Positions 12,732-43,939 of a stretch of 64,000 bases of DNA are shown one piece after another. The DNA is from Escherichia coli (GTDB lineage Bacteria > Pseudomonadota > Gammaproteobacteria > Enterobacterales > Enterobacteriaceae). The DNA lies in the NCBI RefSeq assembly GCF_030013595.1, contig NZ_CP122768.1; one strand, given 5' to 3'. Positions within the stretch are counted from its first letter, which is position 1. Every line of letters starts with the position of its first letter. The position numbers and the translations under genes were made by a program. The notes under the pieces were generated by a model that was given only the letters and a program-made list of their open reading frames with translations, was not told the DNA's origin and made no database searches.

Positions 12732-12800
12732 CAAAACAGATCATTCACCAATGGTCCCCCTTCGTTTACACTAGCCACAATTGAATATGGGTAAATGACG

Positions 12801-13574
12801 ATGAATTCATTCGAGCGAAGGAATAAGATCATCCAATTAGTGAATGAACAGGGAACCATGCTTGTTCAGGATCTGGCGGGAGTATTTGCTGCCTCGGAAG
12901 CGACAATCCGTGCCGATTTGCGCTTTCTCGAACAAAAAGGCGTGGTTACGCGCTTTCATGGCGGTGCGGCGAAAATAATGTCCGGTAATAGTGAAACCGA
13001 GACCCAGGAAGTCGGGTTTAAAGAGCGATTTCAGCTCGCCAGCGCGCCGAAAAACAGAATAGCGCAGGCGGCAGTCAAAATGATCCATGAAGGGATGACC
13101 GTTATTCTCGACAGCGGAAGTACCACAATGCTTATCGCCGAAGGATTAATGACCGCCAAAAATATCACGGTGATTACCAACAGTCTCCCGGCTGCGTTTG
13201 CCCTTTCCGAAAATAAAGACATTACTCTGGTCGTCTGCGGTGGCACGGTCCGCCATAAAACGCGATCTATGCATGGATCTATTGCTGAACGTTCCCTGCA
13301 GGATATTAATGCCGATTTAATGTTTGTCGGTGCTGATGGTATTGATGCGGTTAATGGTATTACGACCTTTAATGAGGGTTATTCCGTTAGCGGTGCGATG
13401 GTCACAGCCGCTAATAAAGTGATTGCCGTTCTCGATTCATCGAAATTTAACCGTCGCGGTTTTAATCAGGTACTGCCAATCGAAAAAATTGACATTATTA
13501 TTACCGATGATGCTGTGTCTGAGGTGGATAAACTGGCATTGCAGAAGACACGGGTGAAATTAATTACGGTGTAG
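12801..13574 (+). CDS. gatR: DeoR-family repressor of the galactitol operon (intact)
   Basis: ORF from 12795; MNSFERRNKIIQLVNEQGTMLVQDLA... is a DeoR-type HTH N-terminus; uninterrupted reading frame of about 257 aa. Confidence 0.85.
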   Translation: MNSFERRNKIIQLVNEQGTMLVQDLAGVFAASEATIRADLRFLEQKGVVTRFHGGAAKIMSGNSETETQEVGFKERFQLASAPKNRIAQAAVKMIHEGMTVILDSGSTTMLIAEGLMTAKNITVITNSLPAAFALSENKDITLVVCGGTVRHKTRSMHGSIAERSLQDINADLMFVGADGIDAVNGITTFNEGYSVSGAMVTAANKVIAVLDSSKFNRRGFNQVLPIEKIDIIITDDAVSEVDKLALQKTRVKLITV

Positions 13575-13579
13575 TATTG

Positions 13580-13640
13580 TTCTGTATGCCGGATAAGGTA
13601 TTTACACCGCATCCGGCATTACGGATTCTCCCTGGTTCAA
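13580..13640. repeat. REP element
   Basis: GCCGGATAAGG...CGCATCCGGC palindromic unit in the convergent gatR/yegS gap. Confidence 0.6.
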
Positions 13641-13655
13641 GAGAGAATAGTTTGA

Positions 13656-14555
13656 TTAACGCAATAATGGACAATCTGGTGGTAATCGACAACGCAACGC
13701 CGCCGGAAGTATTTCAATATGAAAGTTTTGTCCACTCAACGGTTCGCCATCAAGATTAAAAGTGATTTCGTGTGGGGCTTGTATATCAAACCACGACGAA
13801 GCGCCTTCGATAATATTCGGGTTATCTTCGTCAGATTTTAAGGTTGATACGAGAGCCGGAAGAATTTCATCGCCGGTAAAAATGCGCAGTTGCAGCAAGC
13901 CATCGTTAATTAACGCGTTCGGGCACAATTGTTGACCGCCACCGGCCTGACGCCCGTTACCAATACCAATGACCAGGGCGTCACCTTGCCAGTGAAAGTT
14001 TTCACCGCGGATTTCACAACGGTCCGGTTGCAGAGTATCCATACGCATTAAGCCATGAATGATGTATGAGACGCCACCCAGCGCGGCTTTTAATTTTTCC
14101 GGCGTTTCTGTGGTAATACGCGTCCCAAACCCGCCTGTCGCCATATTAATAAAACAGGTTTGTTTGTTGACCTGCGCCATATCTATCGCAATGGCATTAC
14201 CGGCAATTGCCAGTTTCAGCGCCTTATCCAGTGCCTCAGGAATCCCTACACTGGTGGCAAAATCATTGGCGGTTCCTAATGGCAAAATTCCCAGCGCGGG
14301 TATGTCATCCCCCTCACACTGAATCAACGCCGTAGAAACTTCATTAATGGTGCCATCGCCACCACCGGCAATCACCGTTGCGACGCCCAACTTCCGGGCC
14401 TCCTCTACAAATCGTGCGGCATCACCTTTCTCCCAGGTGACCCGCACATGGATCGTCATTCCTTCCTCACGCAACAGCATAATTGCTTCGCGCAAGGGTA
14501 GATTGTCAGTACTTTTGCCATTAAGAATCAGTAAGCTGGCGGGAAATTCTGCCAT
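13656..14555 (-). CDS. yegS: lipid kinase (DAGK_cat family)
   Basis: 299-aa ORF with a diacylglycerol-kinase-like catalytic region (GGDGT); recognised as YegS. Confidence 0.88.
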
Positions 14556-14960
14556 GATCGTATGTGCCTTTATGATTGGTCTGTAGATAGTGTAGAGCAG
14601 AAAAGAAAAGGTGGAGTCAGAACAGGATGAAAGTCGGAGGATAAAAAGTCAGTTCAAGTATGGAGGATTCAGTGGTTACCACCAGGAGCTTGCAATGGGA
14701 ACAGCGAATATTAACGGTAACCACCGATAAATTTCAAAAAAGAGCATATGCCTAATATTCAACTAAACAGTGGCATCTTCAATATAATATATTAAAGCCC
14801 CCATGGAGTTACCCTGAAGGGCCTCAATGTCCGTAATTCCTACTTATGTAGGAAATGTTGTACAGAACATTTATTATAATCCTATTCAATTATAATGATC
14901 ATGCCATTATTATATTTAAACACTAGAGAGTGTCGTTGGTATTTAATGGGGGAAGGTGAG

Positions 14961-15278
14961 ATGAAAAAGATAGCTGCTATATCATTAACTAGTATTTTTC
15001 TTATATCTGGTTGTGCTGTGCATAATGATGAGACAAGTATCGGTAAATTTGGTCTTGCATATAAAAGTAATATTCAGCGTAAACTCGATAACCAATACTA
15101 CACCGAAGCCGAAGCTTCTTTAGCCAGGGGTAGAATATCTGGTGCAGAAAATATAGTAAAAAATGATGCAACTCATTTCTGTGTTACTCAGGGCAAAAAA
15201 ATGCAAATAGTTGAGCTGAAGACAGAAGGTGTAGGATTACATGGTGTCGCTCGTCTGACATTCAAATGTGGAGAGTGA
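14961..15278 (+). CDS. yegR: small putative lipoprotein
   Basis: ATG at 14961 preceded by GGAAGGTGAG; product MKKIAAISLTSIFLISGC... carries a lipobox (LISGC); the ORF-track start at 14895 has no SD. Confidence 0.8.
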   Translation: MKKIAAISLTSIFLISGCAVHNDETSIGKFGLAYKSNIQRKLDNQYYTEAEASLARGRISGAENIVKNDATHFCVTQGKKMQIVELKTEGVGLHGVARLTFKCGE

Positions 15279-15427
15279 GAATATTTTTTGGTAAGCGTCA
15301 AATATGCGCGTTCTGGCTGTGCGTAGCCGGAACCTGTGGGAGCACGATGCCGATAAGTGAAAGGCATCGTGCTATGAAGGAGGATTCTATCGATGTGGTC
15401 AATGGAAGACGGTTACCAGAGATAGGG

Positions 15428-15514
15428 CTTATGCATAAAAAAATAAGCCCGTGTAAGGGAGATTACACAGGCTAAGGAGGTGGTTCCTGGTACAGCTAGC
15501 ATTTTATGGGTTAT
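15428..15514 (-). ncRNA. cyaR: Hfq-dependent small RNA CyaR (RyeE)
   Basis: Minus-strand sequence GCTGAAAAACATAACCCATAAAATGCTAGCTGTACCAGGAACCACCTCCTTAGCCTGTGTAATCTCCCTTACACGGGCTTATTTTTT matches CyaR as I recall it, including the terminator hairpin and U tract. Confidence 0.8.
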
Positions 15515-15608
15515 GTTTTTCAGCGAAACGGATGATAACCTTAATAAATGCAGCTGTATGTGATCGGTTTCTAAGAATTTTCCATCCGGGAAAAATAATC
15601 GAAATTAA

Positions 15609-16970
15609 TCACTTACCGTGGGGATTACGCGTGGTTTCCCCGGAGAAATTACGCATCAGCAGCGCGTAATTGAGCTCAAGATCCTGCGGGACCGGGAGCC
15701 ACACAGTATAACCATCGCCTGGTGCTATCGGCATAGCTTCGCCTTTGGCGTTTTCCATGTGCTCAAGGGTAAAATTAATGTTGCCTTGCGGCGTCATCAG
15801 CTCAAGGCTGTCGCCAACGGAGAATTTATTTTTCACCGCTACCGCCGCGAGGTCCCCCTTGCGCTCACCGGTAAACTCACCAACAAACTGCTGGCGGTCA
15901 GAAACTGAATAACCGTATTCGTAGTTCTGATAATCGTCGTGAGTATGACGACGCAGGAAACCTTCGGTATAGCCACGATGCGCCAGACCTTCCAGAGTTT
16001 CCAGCAGGCTGGTATCGAACGGTTTTCCCGCAGCGGCGTCATCGATAGCTTTGCGGTAAACCTGTGCGGTGCGTGCACAATAGTAGAAAGATTTGGTACG
16101 ACCTTCGATTTTCAGCGAATGCACGCCCATTTTGGTCAGGCGTTCTACATGGGCGATGGCGCGCAGATCTTTCGAGTTCATGATGTAAGTGCCGTGCTCA
16201 TCTTCAAACGCGGTCATATACTCGCCCGGACGCTGGGCCTCTTCGATCATAAACACTTTGTCGGTTGGTGCGCCGATACCCAGCGTCGGCTCAACATTTT
16301 GCACCGGAATCGGCTCGTACTTGTGTACGATGTTGCCAACATCATCTTCTTTCCCTTCCTGGACGTTGTACTCCCAGCGGCAGGCGTTGGTGCAGGTGCC
16401 CTGGTTCGGGTCGCGCTTGTTGATATAGCCAGAGAGCAGGCAGCGACCGGAGTAGGCCATGCACAGCGCGCCGTGAACGAAGATCTCGATCTCCATATCC
16501 GGCACCTGATTGCGGATCTCTTCAATCTCTTCCAGCGACAGCTCGCGAGAGAGGATCACGCGGGTCAGGCCCATTTGCTGCCAGAATTTCACCGTCGCCC
16601 AGTTCACGGCGTTAGCCTGCACCGAAAGGTGGATCGGCATTTCAGGGAAGTGCTCACGCACCAGCATAATCAGCCCTGGATCGGACATAATCAGCGCATC
16701 CGGCCCCATTTCCACCACCGGTTTCAGGTCACGGATAAAGGTTTTCAGCTTGGCGTTGTGCGGTGCAATGTTGACCACGACATAAAACTTTTTCCCCAGC
16801 GCGTGGGCTTCATTGATGCCGAGCTGAAGATTTTCGTGGTTGAATTCGTTGTTGCGCACACGCAGGGAATAACGCGGCTGGCCCGCATAAACAGCATCTG
16901 CGCCATAAGCGAAAGCGTAACGCATATTTTTCAGCGTTCCCGCCGGGGAAAGGAGTTCCGGTTTAAACAT
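15609..16970 (-). CDS. yegQ: U32-family peptidase-like protein (tRNA hydroxylation factor TrhP)
   Basis: 453-aa ORF recognised as YegQ (peptidase U32 family). Confidence 0.88.
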   Translation of the reverse strand: MFKPELLSPAGTLKNMRYAFAYGADAVYAGQPRYSLRVRNNEFNHENLQLGINEAHALGKKFYVVVNIAPHNAKLKTFIRDLKPVVEMGPDALIMSDPGLIMLVREHFPEMPIHLSVQANAVNWATVKFWQQMGLTRVILSRELSLEEIEEIRNQVPDMEIEIFVHGALCMAYSGRCLLSGYINKRDPNQGTCTNACRWEYNVQEGKEDDVGNIVHKYEPIPVQNVEPTLGIGAPTDKVFMIEEAQRPGEYMTAFEDEHGTYIMNSKDLRAIAHVERLTKMGVHSLKIEGRTKSFYYCARTAQVYRKAIDDAAAGKPFDTSLLETLEGLAHRGYTEGFLRRHTHDDYQNYEYGYSVSDRQQFVGEFTGERKGDLAAVAVKNKFSVGDSLELMTPQGNINFTLEHMENAKGEAMPIAPGDGYTVWLPVPQDLELNYALLMRNFSGETTRNPHGK

Positions 16971-17072
16971 AATTCTCTCGTTCTGATGACAGGTCAGATC
17001 CGCTTCACCTGATGAAGCGGTTAGGGGAGTGCCCCCACTTTAAGGGCGGGCATTGTAGCGCAATCGGCGGGT

Positions 17073-17369
17073 TTAGCTCCAGTGTAAATGTCTGGTGGCG
17101 TCCTGGTTTTGGTTAAGGATACGAATGACGATAATTTCCCCTGGTGATTGCAGGAAATAAATGACGTGGCGTTCAAAAGGAAGAACAAAAATACCTTCGC
17201 CTAATTCAGGTCTGGGCGTACCTATATTATTGTTACTCAGAATCTGGAGAACGTCTGAAAGATGTTCCACATATCTGTCGGCTTGTGGTTCGCCGAAATG
17301 GTGATAGCTGTAATACCAGATGCCTTCTAAATCCTCATTGGCTTTTGGCATGAGTTTAATAATACGCAC
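17073..17369 (-). CDS. ParE/RelE-superfamily type II toxin
   Basis: 98-aa ORF; pattern ...ANEDLEGIWYY...PRPELGEGIFVLPFERHVIYF...IIVIRILNQNQD fits ParE-family toxins; start is 1 nt after the upstream antitoxin stop. Confidence 0.7.
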   Translation of the reverse strand: MRIIKLMPKANEDLEGIWYYSYHHFGEPQADRYVEHLSDVLQILSNNNIGTPRPELGEGIFVLPFERHVIYFLQSPGEIIVIRILNQNQDATRHLHWS

Positions 17370-17370
17370 A

Positions 17371-17622
17371 TTATTTCCTTATCCCTGCTTTCACCTTCCG
17401 TAAGAACGCGTCCTTTTCCCACGGCTGAGCTTCACCACTACTCAACCCTTCTGCGAGCATGTCACGTAACGCTTGCAGGCGAGACTCTGCTTGCTTTTCT
17501 CGAAGTAATCGCAGTGACTCACGGATCACTTCGCTTTGGGTGCGATAGTCGCCGGATTCAATTAAGGACTCGATAAATTCACGCAACTCATCGCCGAGAT
17601 CAACCGTCATCGTTCTGGCCAT
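17371..17622 (-). CDS. ParD-family (ribbon-helix-helix, COG3609-like) antitoxin
   Basis: 83 aa from the internal ATG at 17622 (MARTMTVDLGDELREFIESLIESGDYRTQSEVIRESLRLL...); ORF track begins at 17667 but that start lacks an SD. Confidence 0.7.
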   Translation of the reverse strand: MARTMTVDLGDELREFIESLIESGDYRTQSEVIRESLRLLREKQAESRLQALRDMLAEGLSSGEAQPWEKDAFLRKVKAGIRK

Positions 17623-17875
17623 TTTACGCCCGCCTGTAAGTAAAAATCTTACATCAGTGTATGTCATAAACCGGATAGCGTCACGAAAGTATTAGAAGAT
17701 ATTTTGGCACATGAACATGTTCAGGAGGATAAGTATGGGATGGTAAACAAAGAAAGCACAACGAGTGCTCGTCAGTGCCCACTATTTTAATGGCGGCGGT
17801 TACTCTTAATTATTAATAACTAAGCGTTATTTGGATATAAAGCCGGACGCCAACAACCCACGCCCGGCATCGTAA

Positions 17876-18208
17876 TTACGTATTGTCTTTCACCGTCTGG
17901 CTTGTGCCATTGGCTTTAACGGAGGCAATTCCGGTTTCACGAGATTGCGCGGTGGCGTACATCTGGCTGGAGCCGATAATTTGATGATTAGCGGCTTTCA
18001 GATTGAAATAGAATTTGCCGTTACTTGCCGTTTTTTTCTCATAGCGTTCTTCTTGCGGGCTGTTGCTACGCACCGACGCGATGCCCTTTTCCGCAGAGGC
18101 TTTTGAGGTATACAGCTCGCTGGTGAGGATAGTCTCACCATTGCCCGCTTTTAGCACAAACCGGAACTGATTATCACTGCTCTTACTGAGTTCAAACCAA
18201 CCAGCCAT
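17876..18208 (-). CDS. yegP: UPF0339 (DUF1508 tandem repeat) protein
   Basis: 110 aa from the ATG at 18208, preceded by AAGGAG; sequence MAGWFELSKSSDNQFRFVLKAGNGE... recognised as YegP. Confidence 0.85.
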   Translation of the reverse strand: MAGWFELSKSSDNQFRFVLKAGNGETILTSELYTSKASAEKGIASVRSNSPQEERYEKKTASNGKFYFNLKAANHQIIGSSQMYATAQSRETGIASVKANGTSQTVKDNT

Positions 18209-31686: not shown

Positions 31687-31750
31687 GTTTCTCATGGCGG
31701 TTGAAGACAACAATTCAACCGCCAGTTTAAACAATAAATATAACGGCTGA

Positions 31751-36822: not shown

Positions 36823-39800
36823 TCAGTTAATCGCGAAATAACTACTATTCACCAGCAAATCCAGCGGTTGGGCATCGGCAATCACATCACCATAAATCAG
36901 ATCGACGCCGATGCCCGAAAGCGTATCCATCACTAAGGGTAAAACGACTGGCCCGGCTATAGTCTTCACCCCGAGTCGCTGAGCGTGCCCCAGAATAATC
37001 GTAATCAGCATCTCATCCATCAAATTACCCTGCACGTTGGCGCATAAATCCCCATCAAGTAGCAGGTAATCTGCCATATTCGCTTTCAGCGAGTTGAAGA
37101 TTTGCAGATCGCGGCCCACCTGGCTGAGCACTATCCGACATCCCGCCAGCCGCAGTTTTTGCACGCTTTCTGCGTGATCTAAAATCGCTTCTGCCGGAAT
37201 AACCAGATGTAATAACCGTGGTGGTAGAGGGCTATTTTCCATCTGCTCAAGCAGGTCATTCACCAGCGTGGCGCTACTCAAACCGGCAACGGAAAGGGGG
37301 AGGGCGATGCTTATGCCTTTACTGGCAACCGCTTTGGCAGCCTGCTGGAAAAATTCGTGGAATACCCGTCGGTCAAGAGCATGGCTAAGTGCCGGATCGC
37401 TGCAGCTACGACGAAATGTTTGTTCATCAATAATCTCGCCTTCGCAACTCCACAGCTTAAGTGAAATCAGCCACAAATTACGCGCTTCCGGGATCCGTGG
37501 CGAAGCGACACCGTGGGCGATCATCATCAACTGATTCTCTTTAATCATCCGCCACTGTTCATCAAGCGACATCGCCGCCTGTTCGCTATGTGCGGCAGCT
37601 TGCTGCGGTTCGTAAATCGTCACCCGGCCCCGGCCACCATTTTTGGAGGCATAACAGGCGATATCAGCCTGCGACATCACTTCAGCCGCCTGATGATTGT
37701 TGTCATCAATCAAGGTAATCCCGGCACTGGCACCTACCCGATGTACACGTCCTTCCCAGATAAAGTGATAGTCATTCACAGCACTGATAATACGTGTAGC
37801 GATAAAACGCGCACTTTCGACATTGCAGTCTGGCAGCAGCAGACCAAATTCATCACCGCCGAGCCGCGCCAGCACGTCGCTGGAGCGCAGCATGCTCAGC
37901 ATCAACGACGCCAGTTCGCGCAGTAAAGCGTCGCCCGCCGCATGCCCGGCGCTGTCATTCACCGCTTTAAAGCGATCAAGATCGATAAACACCAGGGCAT
38001 GTCGCTGATGCGTACTGTTTACCGTTTGCAGCAGGATGCGTAGTTGCTTCTCAAAACTGGCGCGATTGGCGAGATGCGTCAGTGCATCATGGGAGGCGCT
38101 GTAGCTCAGCTGGCGCAGCATTTTGCGTGATTCGGTGACGTCCTGAATCACCAGAACCGAACCAATATTGCTGCCGTCCAGAGTACTTAACGGCGTAATA
38201 CTGTAATGCACGTCGTAGCTGCCGCCGCTCCGGCAGTGCAACACCACATCTTGTTCAATCGCGGAACGTGAGGTGTCGGCACTGTAAATGTTTTCCATTA
38301 ATGGTCCGTTGTCGCCAAAAGTAATATGCAACACCGTCAGGAGCGGAACACCTAATGCTTCTTCCTGCGTCCAGCCGCTCATCTTCTCCGCCACTGGATT
38401 CATAAAGGTAATTTTCATTGCCATATCAATACAGACCACGGCTTCGCCGATGGAGTCCAGCGTAATGTGCAGGCGCTCTTTTTCCTGAAACAATGCCTCG
38501 TTAAGCTGTTTAACCTCGGTCATATCCATATTAATGCCGAGCAGGCGTTCGACTTCGCCTTCTTTATTCAGTACCCGGTTGGCGAGGGCGCGGATATGGC
38601 GGATGCCATCTTTCACGGCAATGCGAAATTCCAGCTTAAAGGGCGAGCGTGATTGCAACGAATCACGAATCACTTTTTCGGCATGCTGGCGATCTTCCGG
38701 CAGCACGCACTCGTACCACACCTGCCAGTTCGGTTTGATATGCGGAGGAATTTCATACAGCTCGAACATCCGCTTATCCCAGCTAAAAATATTCGGCTTC
38801 AGCTCCCACTCCCAGATGCCAATCCCGCCCGCTTCGTTAGCCAGCGTGATGCGTTCCATCAGTTGCTGATTCACCTGTTCGGTGCGTTTTAGCTCGTTAA
38901 TGTCTTCAATCTGAGCGATAAAATAGAGCGGCGTGCCATCCGTGTGGCGCACCAGTGAGACGGCAAGCAACGCCCAGACAACATCGCCATTGCGGTTGTA
39001 GTAACGTTTTTCCATTGAATAGGTGTTTATTTCACCGCTTATCAGCTTTTCAACCTGTTGGAGATCTTTATTGAGATCCTCCGGCCAGGTCAGTTGCTGA
39101 AAGGTGAGTCCGCGCAGCTCTTCCTGACTGTAACCGAGAAACTGGCAGAGTGCTTTGTTGGATTGCAGCCATTGTCCCTCGGTGCCCACTAATGCCATGC
39201 CGATGGCGGAATATTCCATGGCGTTCCGAAAGCGGGTTTCGCTTTCGGAAATGTGTTTGCGTTCCGCACGAAAGGCATACATCACCATGGTCATGATGTT
39301 GGCGGGCAGCAGGATCAGCAAAAACGGTAGCCACGGCATATGGCTCGTCAGGTACGTACGCGGCGTAGCAAGCAGGGAGGGATCCGCGGCCATCATCAGC
39401 GACACCATCATTACCGTGGTAAGGAAGATCAAAAAGGCTTCCATTCGTGGCAGGCGCACGGCGCTCCACATCAACAGCACAATAATGAAAGTAAAAGGCC
39501 ACGGCAGATACAGCATCGAAAGCCAGCTTAACGTCAGTGTGATGGCTAACGTGAGCAGCGACTCAAAAAGCAACCGTGGGTTGCGATGGCGCAGCAGATA
39601 GTGTGGTTTAAATAACAATCCCAGCGGCACCAGTGCCAGAGCGCCGATGGATTCTGACAGTACCCATATCAAAAATGCCCTGAGAGGATCGTCTCCGGGC
39701 GTCAGCAGGACAACCAGAACACCCCCCAACAGAGGTGGAACAATGGCGCTGCCGAGTGCCAGACGCAGCCAGTCAGCCAGATTTTGCAAGGGGTTATACC

Positions 39801-43700: not shown

Positions 43701-43939
43701 AGGCGTTCGTGGCGGCATCATTATATTCTGAATATGTAAGATCGAAGGCTGTTCCGTTCACTTGATGTTCCTCGTTACTATGGAACGCTCAAGCCGGTGA
43801 ACGTGCCAGGGTGGCTCAATCGCCACCACCCTGGCAACCCGGGCCCACACCCCCGCTGTGATGTCCATGTACCACAGACAACGCTTCATTGCTGAAGTTA
43901 TAAGGCGTTACGCAGCATCGGGTAAAATGACCGATACCA

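Follow-up and report, generated by a model that had tools for sequence, protein, structure and literature searches.

Does the interval between yegR and yegQ in this Escherichia coli strain hold an unoccupied attachment site for phages of the P2 type, and what are the sequences that lie beside it? We addressed this within a 64-kb stretch of E. coli DNA (64,000 nucleotides, hereafter the window, with positions counted from its first letter), in which positions 15279-15608 coincide exactly with the spacer between yegR and yegQ (trhP). Comparison with phage and bacterial sequences indicates that this interval is almost certainly the preferred attB of P2 and its close relatives, and that it is empty in this strain. 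An empty P2 attB at cyaR is a feature already known from the literature. The site carries no recent element and probably borders a far older one, and a perfect 11-bp stem lies between yegR and cyaR. For the explanation as a whole, comprising the attB, the old remnant and the stem, we estimate a probability of roughly 0.85.

The features on which the identification of the site depends are the following.

15438-15464, + strand: 27-bp attB core, 27/27 to P2 attP; about 850 E. coli genomes are broken at both of its ends.
15441-15526, - strand: cyaR (ryeE) sRNA, Rfam RF00112 CyaR_RyeE, 100.7 bits, E = 4.8e-20.
15446-15473, - strand: intrinsic terminator hairpin of cyaR, 11 pairs and a 6-nt loop, then TATTTTTTT, from the terminator scan and the Rfam structure line.
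15609-16970, - strand: yegQ / trhP, the host gene flanking on the cyaR side, from the ORF list and the annotation of matching genomes.

The 27-nt P2 core, AAAAAATAAGCCCGTGTAAGGGAGATT, is present as a single copy in the 64-kb window, at 15438-15464. It is identical at 27 of 27 positions to nucleotides 24356-24382 of P2 (AF063097), which are annotated as attP / Int core. When 50,697 phage records were searched with the locus, 27/27 core matches were found in P2 (AF063097 / NC_001895) and in five other Peduovirus genomes. In the P2 record, one side of the core carries the Int P-arm site, an IHF site and the ogr / F-operon terminator, and the opposite side carries the Cox sites, the P' arm and int. 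A preliminary description of this DNA had placed a P2 attachment core at the 3' end of cyaR, and both the alignment to the annotated P2 attP and the overlap with cyaR bear this out. The sequence had been identified correctly; the position given for it, about 15427-15453, was wrong, and the core lies 11 nt further to the right. Judging from the P2 record and from established biology, P2 Int, a tyrosine recombinase, would exchange strands inside the 27-bp core together with IHF, and excision would additionally need Cox.

We take this attachment site to be the 'locI' of the P2 literature. The P2 attB locI of E. coli C and the ogr-D' locus of K-12 share with the window the same yegR / cyaR / yegQ locus and the same 27-nt core; we see no essential difference from them, and the window represents the unoccupied allele. 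The 'cyaR RNA' has been listed among the P2 insertion sites (Archer et al. 2011, PMC3032704), with Wphi2 as the occupant in strain W, ogr-D' in K-12 and none in Crooks (PMC3032704).

The sRNA that overlaps the core was recovered at full length (model positions 1-85), with a covariance-model score of 100.7 bits against a gathering score of 47, and an Rfam scan of 13000-18000 found no RNA other than cyaR. Read on the cyaR strand, the core is AATCTCCCTTACACGGGCTTATTTTTT and comprises the terminator loop, the descending (3') stem and the U-run. In K-12 Term-seq data (supplement of PMC7815308), the cyaR 3' end falls within the T-run of the core. Since an incoming phage brings the identical 27 bp, cyaR would be restored intact at the ogr-proximal junction; such rebuilding of the gene on integration is what the geometry of the site predicts. 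Temperate elements are found at the 3' ends of other RNA genes: ssrA hosts Fels-2 and SopE-phi, a tRNA-Ile gene hosts phage 186 (PMC3448106) and rybB hosts P2-type elements (PMC3032704), and the sdsR locus in Salmonella is a further example of integration at an sRNA (PMC3333887). As in these cases of integration at the 3' ends of tRNA, tmRNA and sRNA genes, the att core takes in the terminator end of the gene, which would be made whole again by the copy that the phage brings. The present site differs from them in having a short core, of 27 bp, limited to the terminator loop, the 3' stem and the U-run, and in having extra homology downstream of cyaR, beyond the logic of gene restoration, which we attribute to the relic arm described below.

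To what extent the site is used within the species is evident from a survey of the 5,423 E. coli genomes containing the locus.

Site contiguous around the core: about 4,217 genomes, ~78% (4,573 contiguous or short-gap genomes minus the 356 of K-12 type).
K-12-type junction: 356 genomes, ~7%.
Split exactly at window positions 15438 and 15464: about 850 genomes, ~16%.

In many E. coli genomes, a stretch of 241 nt around the core is uninterrupted and matches the window at 100% identity. Strain ERL04-3476 has a complete 32-kb P2-like prophage here, with a core copy at each end and oriented so that int adjoins yegR and D-ogr adjoins cyaR. The K-12-like genome CM56 equals the window plus 629 bp at the core, and both sides align at 100%. 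These extra 629 bp contain an 18-nt duplicated partial core, a fragment of gene D, ogrK and a P2 P arm, and the arrangement recurs in K-12 derivatives such as BW25113. The cryptic P2 remnant that the preliminary description had named for K-12 is thus indeed present, with its gene-D fragment and ogrK at exactly the core; the ogr-D' remnant was described by Barreiro & Haggard-Ljungquist (1992, J Bacteriol 174:4086, as cited in PMC3091744).

In the window, no phage ORFs and no D'-ogr remnant were found in the yegR-yegQ interval and the 629-bp K-12 insert is missing, in agreement with the earlier statement that no prophage genes lie between the two genes. Whether prophage remnants are detectable in the interval has a divided answer: those of a recent element are not, and in a limited sense remnants do exist, as non-coding att-arm relics around a 795-bp insert. 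Outside the core, the yegR-cyaR spacer is matched by two phage records only, AY639599 and ON470606. We rejected both as phage homologues of the spacer, as each simply takes in host flank; AY639599 ('Phage TP') covers the K-12 remnant region.

The probable older element lies on the yegR side of the core, and its parts are listed here from left to right.

14643-14669, + strand: degenerate att core (attL relic) at the left edge of the insert, AAAAAGTCAGTTCAAGTATGGAGGATT, sharing 18 of 27 positions with the P2 core.
14670-14750, + strand: P'-like relic (the P2 side between the core and the int stop), from alignment to P2 24383-24475.
14961-15278, + strand: yegR, encoding a 105-aa predicted lipoprotein (signal peptide, lipobox LISGC), from the annotation in matching genomes.
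15385-15437, + strand: P2-type P-arm relic, with one intact Int arm repeat, a decayed second repeat and an ACCAGA.ATA motif.

Window positions 14643-15437 (~795 bp, including yegR and the 11-bp stem) are absent from E. albertii, from Escherichia E69 and E1V33, and from Klebsiella, and the boundary of this absence falls precisely at the core. In E69, E1V33, E. albertii, K. oxytoca and ESNIH1, homology to the window ends at 14647 (or within yegS) and resumes at 15437/15438. Parsimony over these few lineages favours an insertion of 14643-15437 over its loss elsewhere, and the right boundary of the inserted segment is the left end of the core. In Klebsiella oxytoca and ESNIH1, yegS lies ~80-95 bp from cyaR with no yegR between them, and the element-free genomes, including E69 and E1V33, have a common, conserved flank that differs from that of the window. 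The GC content of the segment is 33-40%, compared to 50-57% in the flanking genes. Within E. coli the spacer of the segment is nearly universal, being found in 5,417 of the 5,426 genomes searched.

Both edges of the segment resemble parts of a P2 attachment site. At the left edge, the 18/27 score of AAAAAGTCAGTTCAAGTATGGAGGATT was equalled in 4 of 2000 shuffles, and its position is where insert-free genomes hold an intact core beside the yegS-side flank. This degenerate edge is identical across 12 E. coli alleles, and its decay is therefore older than the diversification of E. coli. At the right edge, the relic P arm has an intact arm-type Int repeat, TGTGGTCA, at 15394-15401 (Int arm-repeat consensus tgTGGaCa; PMC3448106). 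Within the same arm, TCGATGTGGTCAATG is identical to the P2 P-arm Int site over 15 of 15 nt, and TATCGATGTGGTCAATG to the arms of Citrobacter P2-family prophages over 17 of 17. Relative to P2, ~15 nt of the IHF-site region are gone and the ACCAGA.ATA motif lies that much nearer to the core.

Local alignment of the relic P arm to P2 gave 71% identity (z = 8.8, 0/2000 shuffles), and the P'-like relic aligned with 66% identity over 73 columns (z = 4.0, 12/2000 shuffles). Profiles of ten P2-family P arms and of five P' arms, from which the core was excluded, were also run over both strands of the whole 64-kb window. The best window-wide hit of the P-arm profile was 15385-15423, with a modest E value of 0.039, and that of the P'-arm profile was 14675-14699, with an E value of 1.8 that is weak alone. 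Each of these top hits is weak singly, yet position and orientation are as predicted for both. A tblastx comparison of the insert with a complete P2-like prophage revealed no recognisable phage gene and matched in the att regions only.

Taken at the level of sequence, these data suggest that 14643-15437 is probably an ancient, decayed remnant of the P2 family, and that the 'B arm' of the E. coli site is the right end of this remnant. The old insertion, made up of yegR, the AT-rich sequence upstream of it, two hairpins and the relic P arm, would have entered at the same site, with the decayed core and P'-like sequence as its left limit and the live core as its right one. The D'-ogr of K-12 would then be a second, younger remnant laid over the old one. 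We regard this reading of the yegR segment as a moderately well-supported refinement of a known site. No description of the yegR flank as an older att-bounded remnant was found in the literature searched, the scope of which did not include the original P2 att papers, and an earlier description is possible.

P2-family elements occupy the same site in other genera and in E. albertii. A scan for the cyaR pattern in one genome per species gave 120 loci, and P2-family prophage arms directly adjoin cyaR in Citrobacter, Trabulsiella, Buttiauxella, Enterobacter and E. albertii. The order at those right ends is the last gene, a GC hairpin with a T-run, (T)ATCGATGTGGTCAATGTGTGGAC, an IHF-like region and the core, and the core variant in other Enterobacteriaceae matches each host's own cyaR terminator. 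Between Ogr and the last terminator / P arm, the intact or partial prophages at cyaR in the other genera have a variable stretch, a cargo slot in which we found a T5orf172 protein, a C5 DNA methylase, a YafO toxin or a small lipoprotein. Separately, an alternative arm sequence beside cyaR, in L031, has no match in the 5,426 E. coli genomes.

A parallel is an insert of 3.3 kb in the E. albertii type strain, located at the same site and enclosed by two well-kept copies of the core. P' sequence lies towards yegS and part of a P arm towards cyaR, and no genes other than cdtA, cdtB and cdtC can be recognised in it. Like the E. coli segment, it is a short, core-flanked insert at the yegS-cyaR site, with P' sequence, a partial P arm and nothing but cargo. 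The two differ in size (3.3 kb versus ~0.8 kb), in the state of the cores (both well preserved in E. albertii, the left one at 18/27 in E. coli) and in content (a toxin operon versus yegR only). P2-like prophages with cdt-V have been described in E. coli O157 (Svab et al. 2013, as cited in PMC5136569).

What, then, is yegR? The gene lies inside the ~795-bp insert (the mechanical ORF list starts it at 14895), and its position and orientation correspond to the P2-family cargo slot, which has ogr on one side and the last terminator / P arm on the other. The YegR family is nearly restricted to E. coli and Shigella, and yegR is missing at the syntenic site in E. albertii, Escherichia E69, E1V33 and Klebsiella. 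By analogy with the cargo slot, yegR may be retained phage cargo, a reading that fits its position. Distant YegR relatives, at 47-66% identity, stand in unrelated, non-phage chromosomal contexts, and a tblastn search of YegR against phages returned just the two host-flank records (AY639599 and ON470606) and no independent phage homologue. Three apparent links to phages were rejected. The match to phrog_21109 (E = 7e-70) is YegR itself at an identity of at least 94%, a prophage-boundary artefact. The 80 IMG/VR loci are also at least 94% identical, lie nearly all within ~2 kb of a predicted prophage end, and are boundary artefacts as well. The Trabulsiella prophage encodes a small lipoprotein in its cargo slot, and this protein shows no homology to YegR (E = 31). 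In glucose chemostats, knocking out yegR produced no phenotype (PMC3708739).

Two hairpins follow the yegR coding sequence.

15310-15333, + strand: a further hairpin 3' of yegR with 10 pairs, two of them G.U pairs that can form in + strand RNA only.
15341-15373, + strand: perfect 11-bp stem with an 11-nt loop, from the fold; proposed hairpin at the end of the yegR transcript.

The perfect stem had been noticed before and is located where it was said to be: its arms AGCACGATGCC (15341-15351) and GGCATCGTGCT (15363-15373) are complementary at 11 of 11 positions and enclose an 11-nt loop. Folded in a 56-nt context, it reaches -24.3 kcal/mol (z = -6.65), and none of 200 shuffles was as stable. The hairpin at 15310-15333 appears in the MFE and centroid folds of 15291-15440, which have z = -4.07 on the + strand. 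The stem is not the only one of its kind: the window contains four perfect inverted repeats whose arms reach at least 11 bp and whose loops span 3-20 nt, compared to 0.53 expected from shuffles. As regards the earlier suggestion that it may terminate yegR, the stem is no canonical intrinsic terminator: it has an 11-nt loop and the tail ATGAAGGAGG, with no U-tract, and the terminator scan made no call at it. Our tentative reading, to which we give somewhat less than even odds, is that the stem is the 3'-end hairpin of the yegR transcript and limits read-through antisense to cyaR. It may act as a barrier or stabiliser after factor-dependent termination, or may be a decayed terminator. The K-12 Term-seq tables examined (PMC7815308) list no yegR 3' end, and yegR is possibly poorly expressed.

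The main alternative for the stem is that it descends from the last terminator of the old phage, as a decayed rho-independent terminator and counterpart of the P2 ogr / F-operon terminator, and has no function today. All P2-family right ends that we examined have a GC-rich hairpin and a T-run 3-8 nt before the first arm repeat, and the stem, 14 nt upstream of the relic P-arm repeat, is at roughly the same position relative to an arm-type Int repeat as these late-operon terminators. The correspondence ends with position: the distance is 14 nt and not 3-8 nt, no T-run is left, the stem composition differs, and the loop has 11 nt as opposed to 3-4 nt in the P2-family phage terminators. Nor is there sequence similarity to P2-family terminators; the stem region showed no homology to the P2 ogr 3' end / terminator (z = 0.3), and no phage homologue of the stem was found. 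In addition, the stem has kept its 11/11 pairing while the neighbouring core copy fell to 18/27, which argues for maintenance and not decay. Among 11 E. coli alleles, the stem arms show 1-2 singleton changes and the loop varies at 2-3 positions; this rate is indistinguishable from that of the spacer as a whole, and diversity is too low for an assessment of selection or covariation on the stem. We consider a mere relic of a terminator doubtful, and retain the yegR 3'-end hairpin as our working interpretation of the stem.

The origin of the left flank as a whole can also be explained differently. It could be ordinary ancestral host DNA, its likeness to the P2 arms being due to chance or to a phage having copied host sequence, with yegR lost in the other lineages. 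Temperate phages do carry host-derived sequence at att sites, the segment is without a detectable phage gene, YegR relatives elsewhere are not associated with phages, and the P' match, at E = 1.8 window-wide, is weak. Ancestral host DNA does not account well for a presence/absence pattern with limits exactly at the core, for a core-like 27-mer at the other boundary, or for a GC content ~15 points below that of the flanks. The common arm motif is the Int arm-binding repeat, which P2-family phages from several genera have conserved; its location is beyond the 3' end of cyaR, on the downstream side, where there is no gene to restore. Klebsiella and ESNIH1, moreover, have only the ~80-95 bp between their yegS and cyaR homology blocks. 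We consider an ancestral flank unlikely, and it is already disfavoured relative to the old P2-family remnant.

Besides these RNA-level interpretations of the 11-bp inverted repeat, it might act at the level of DNA, as a palindrome bound by a protein such as a regulator or a recombination accessory factor. The palindrome is perfect, has a spacer of 11 bp and lies near a recombination site, and it is equally stable on either strand. Such a role seems improbable to us, as the repeat is single-copy in E. coli genomes and no known P2 Int, IHF or Cox site is similar to it. The sole arm variant seen, a checked C>T change in the 5' arm, breaks the symmetry of the DNA and keeps G.U pairing on the + strand only, in the RNA.

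That the site is unusable as attB despite its perfect core, for instance through interference by the relic arm or the local context, is scarcely credible: nothing direct speaks for it, although a relic arm repeat beside attB is unusual for a tyrosine-recombinase attB, and lysogens with a left spacer that is 92-96% identical and has the relic repeat intact hold P2-like prophages at the core.

In conclusion, the interval is best read as an empty P2 attB that borders an old P2-family remnant, and the empty site means that P2 should be able to lysogenise this strain there, at the site that it prefers. The main finding, a textbook attachment site, brings nothing new, and the modest added value is evolutionary. 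A more speculative extension, which we think has little chance of being correct, is that the preferred site of P2 is the attR of a fixed ancient remnant that donated yegR, and that the surviving Int repeat, located 36 bp away from the core, still has an effect. If this were true, the attL of today's lysogens (relic P arm - core - P') would resemble attP, and the relic Int repeat would influence the site preference of P2, or the excision of prophages or their decay into remnants like the ogr-D' of K-12. The locus presents layers of reuse, with the old yegR remnant, the ogr-D' of K-12, live prophages in ~16% of strains and the cdtABC remnant of E. albertii. It is a clean example of how att sites at sRNA terminators gather cargo genes while the phage decays, and the old-remnant reading suggests an origin for the orphan lipoprotein gene yegR.

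We observed that, in some E. coli lineages, the yegR stop codon is directly followed by an additional AT-rich stretch of ~170 bp. Neither the window nor K-12 has this segment, and in one record a 41-aa hypothetical ORF is annotated within it. Its occurrences are as follows.

Post-yegR AT-rich segment: positions 2497-2667 of locus L004 (host flank in ON470606)
Post-yegR AT-rich segment: also H16, H17 and H125-H136

Downstream of yegR (window 14961-15278, +), a strong Shine-Dalgarno-like AAGGAGGA is followed after 8 nt by a 10-codon ORF that overlaps the relic P arm.

Window 15377-15425 (+): Shine-Dalgarno-like run and ORF, reading ATG TGG TCA ATG GAA GAC GGT TAC CAG AGA TAG
Window 15385-15437 (+): relic P arm, resembling the P arm of P2 attP

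The purine run preceding the ORF is AAGGGAGA in most alleles, and the combination of run and ORF probably arose by chance. Elsewhere, the window contains three further short-looped inverted repeats with perfect 11-bp arms, at 31695-31724, 39224-39250 and 43804-43836. Upstream of yegS, the DeoR-family ORF gatR (window 12795-13574, +) is intact at 259 aa; its counterpart in the K-12-like strain CM56 is annotated as an incomplete pseudogene.

Host flank from this region contaminates several database entries described as phage, namely AY639599.1 (L002), ON470606.1 (L004), phrog_21109 and the IMG/VR loci L143-L222. 'Phage TP' (AY639599.1) consists of the K-12 ogr-D' remnant, the 3' end of yegR and yegQ, the last of these labelled 'putative protease'. 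YegR has a PHROG of its own (phrog_21109) and lies at or near the ends of ~80 IMG/VR prophage contigs (L143-L222); in IMGVR_UViG_2565956724_000008, yegR is present at both contig ends. We also found that a 9,688-nt contig of a MAG labelled Collinsella sp. (L118) closes with the right end of P2, comprising the 3' end of ogr, the terminator, the P arm and the core, joined to an E. coli-type cyaR at 100% identity. Contamination by Escherichia DNA is the probable explanation for this MAG.

In other genera, the stretch that separates Ogr from the last terminator or P arm in P2-family prophages at cyaR serves as a variable cargo slot. Genes for a T5orf172-domain protein, a C5 cytosine methylase, a YafO toxin and a small lipoprotein were seen there.

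Cargo-slot examples: loci L022, L028, L081, L005 and L085, 0-2.5 kb left of the core

In the E. albertii type strain NBRC 107761, the yegS-cyaR att site holds a 3.3-kb insert (L006 4957-8303) with a core copy on each side, as well as P' sequence and part of a P arm. No genes are recognisable in this insert other than cdtA, cdtB and cdtC, encoding cytolethal distending toxin.

A different P2-family-like arm adjoins cyaR in SCPM-O-B-8794, an 'E. coli' that is a separate GTDB species representative (L031 1-223). Its IHF-like region is conserved, its arm repeats differ, and its core matches at 26/27 positions; a search of 5,426 E. coli genomes gave no match to the arm sequence. A 20-nt match to window 15319-15338 lies about 110 nt to the left of it. 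The core is also polymorphic within E. coli, with strain 510016 (L129) reading AAGCCTGCGTAAGG at the equivalent of window 15450-15452. The same variant, which exchanges which cyaR terminator pair is a G.U wobble, is present in cyaR of E. albertii and Citrobacter and in their prophages. The allele in strain 510016 may be the trace of a core exchange with a phage.
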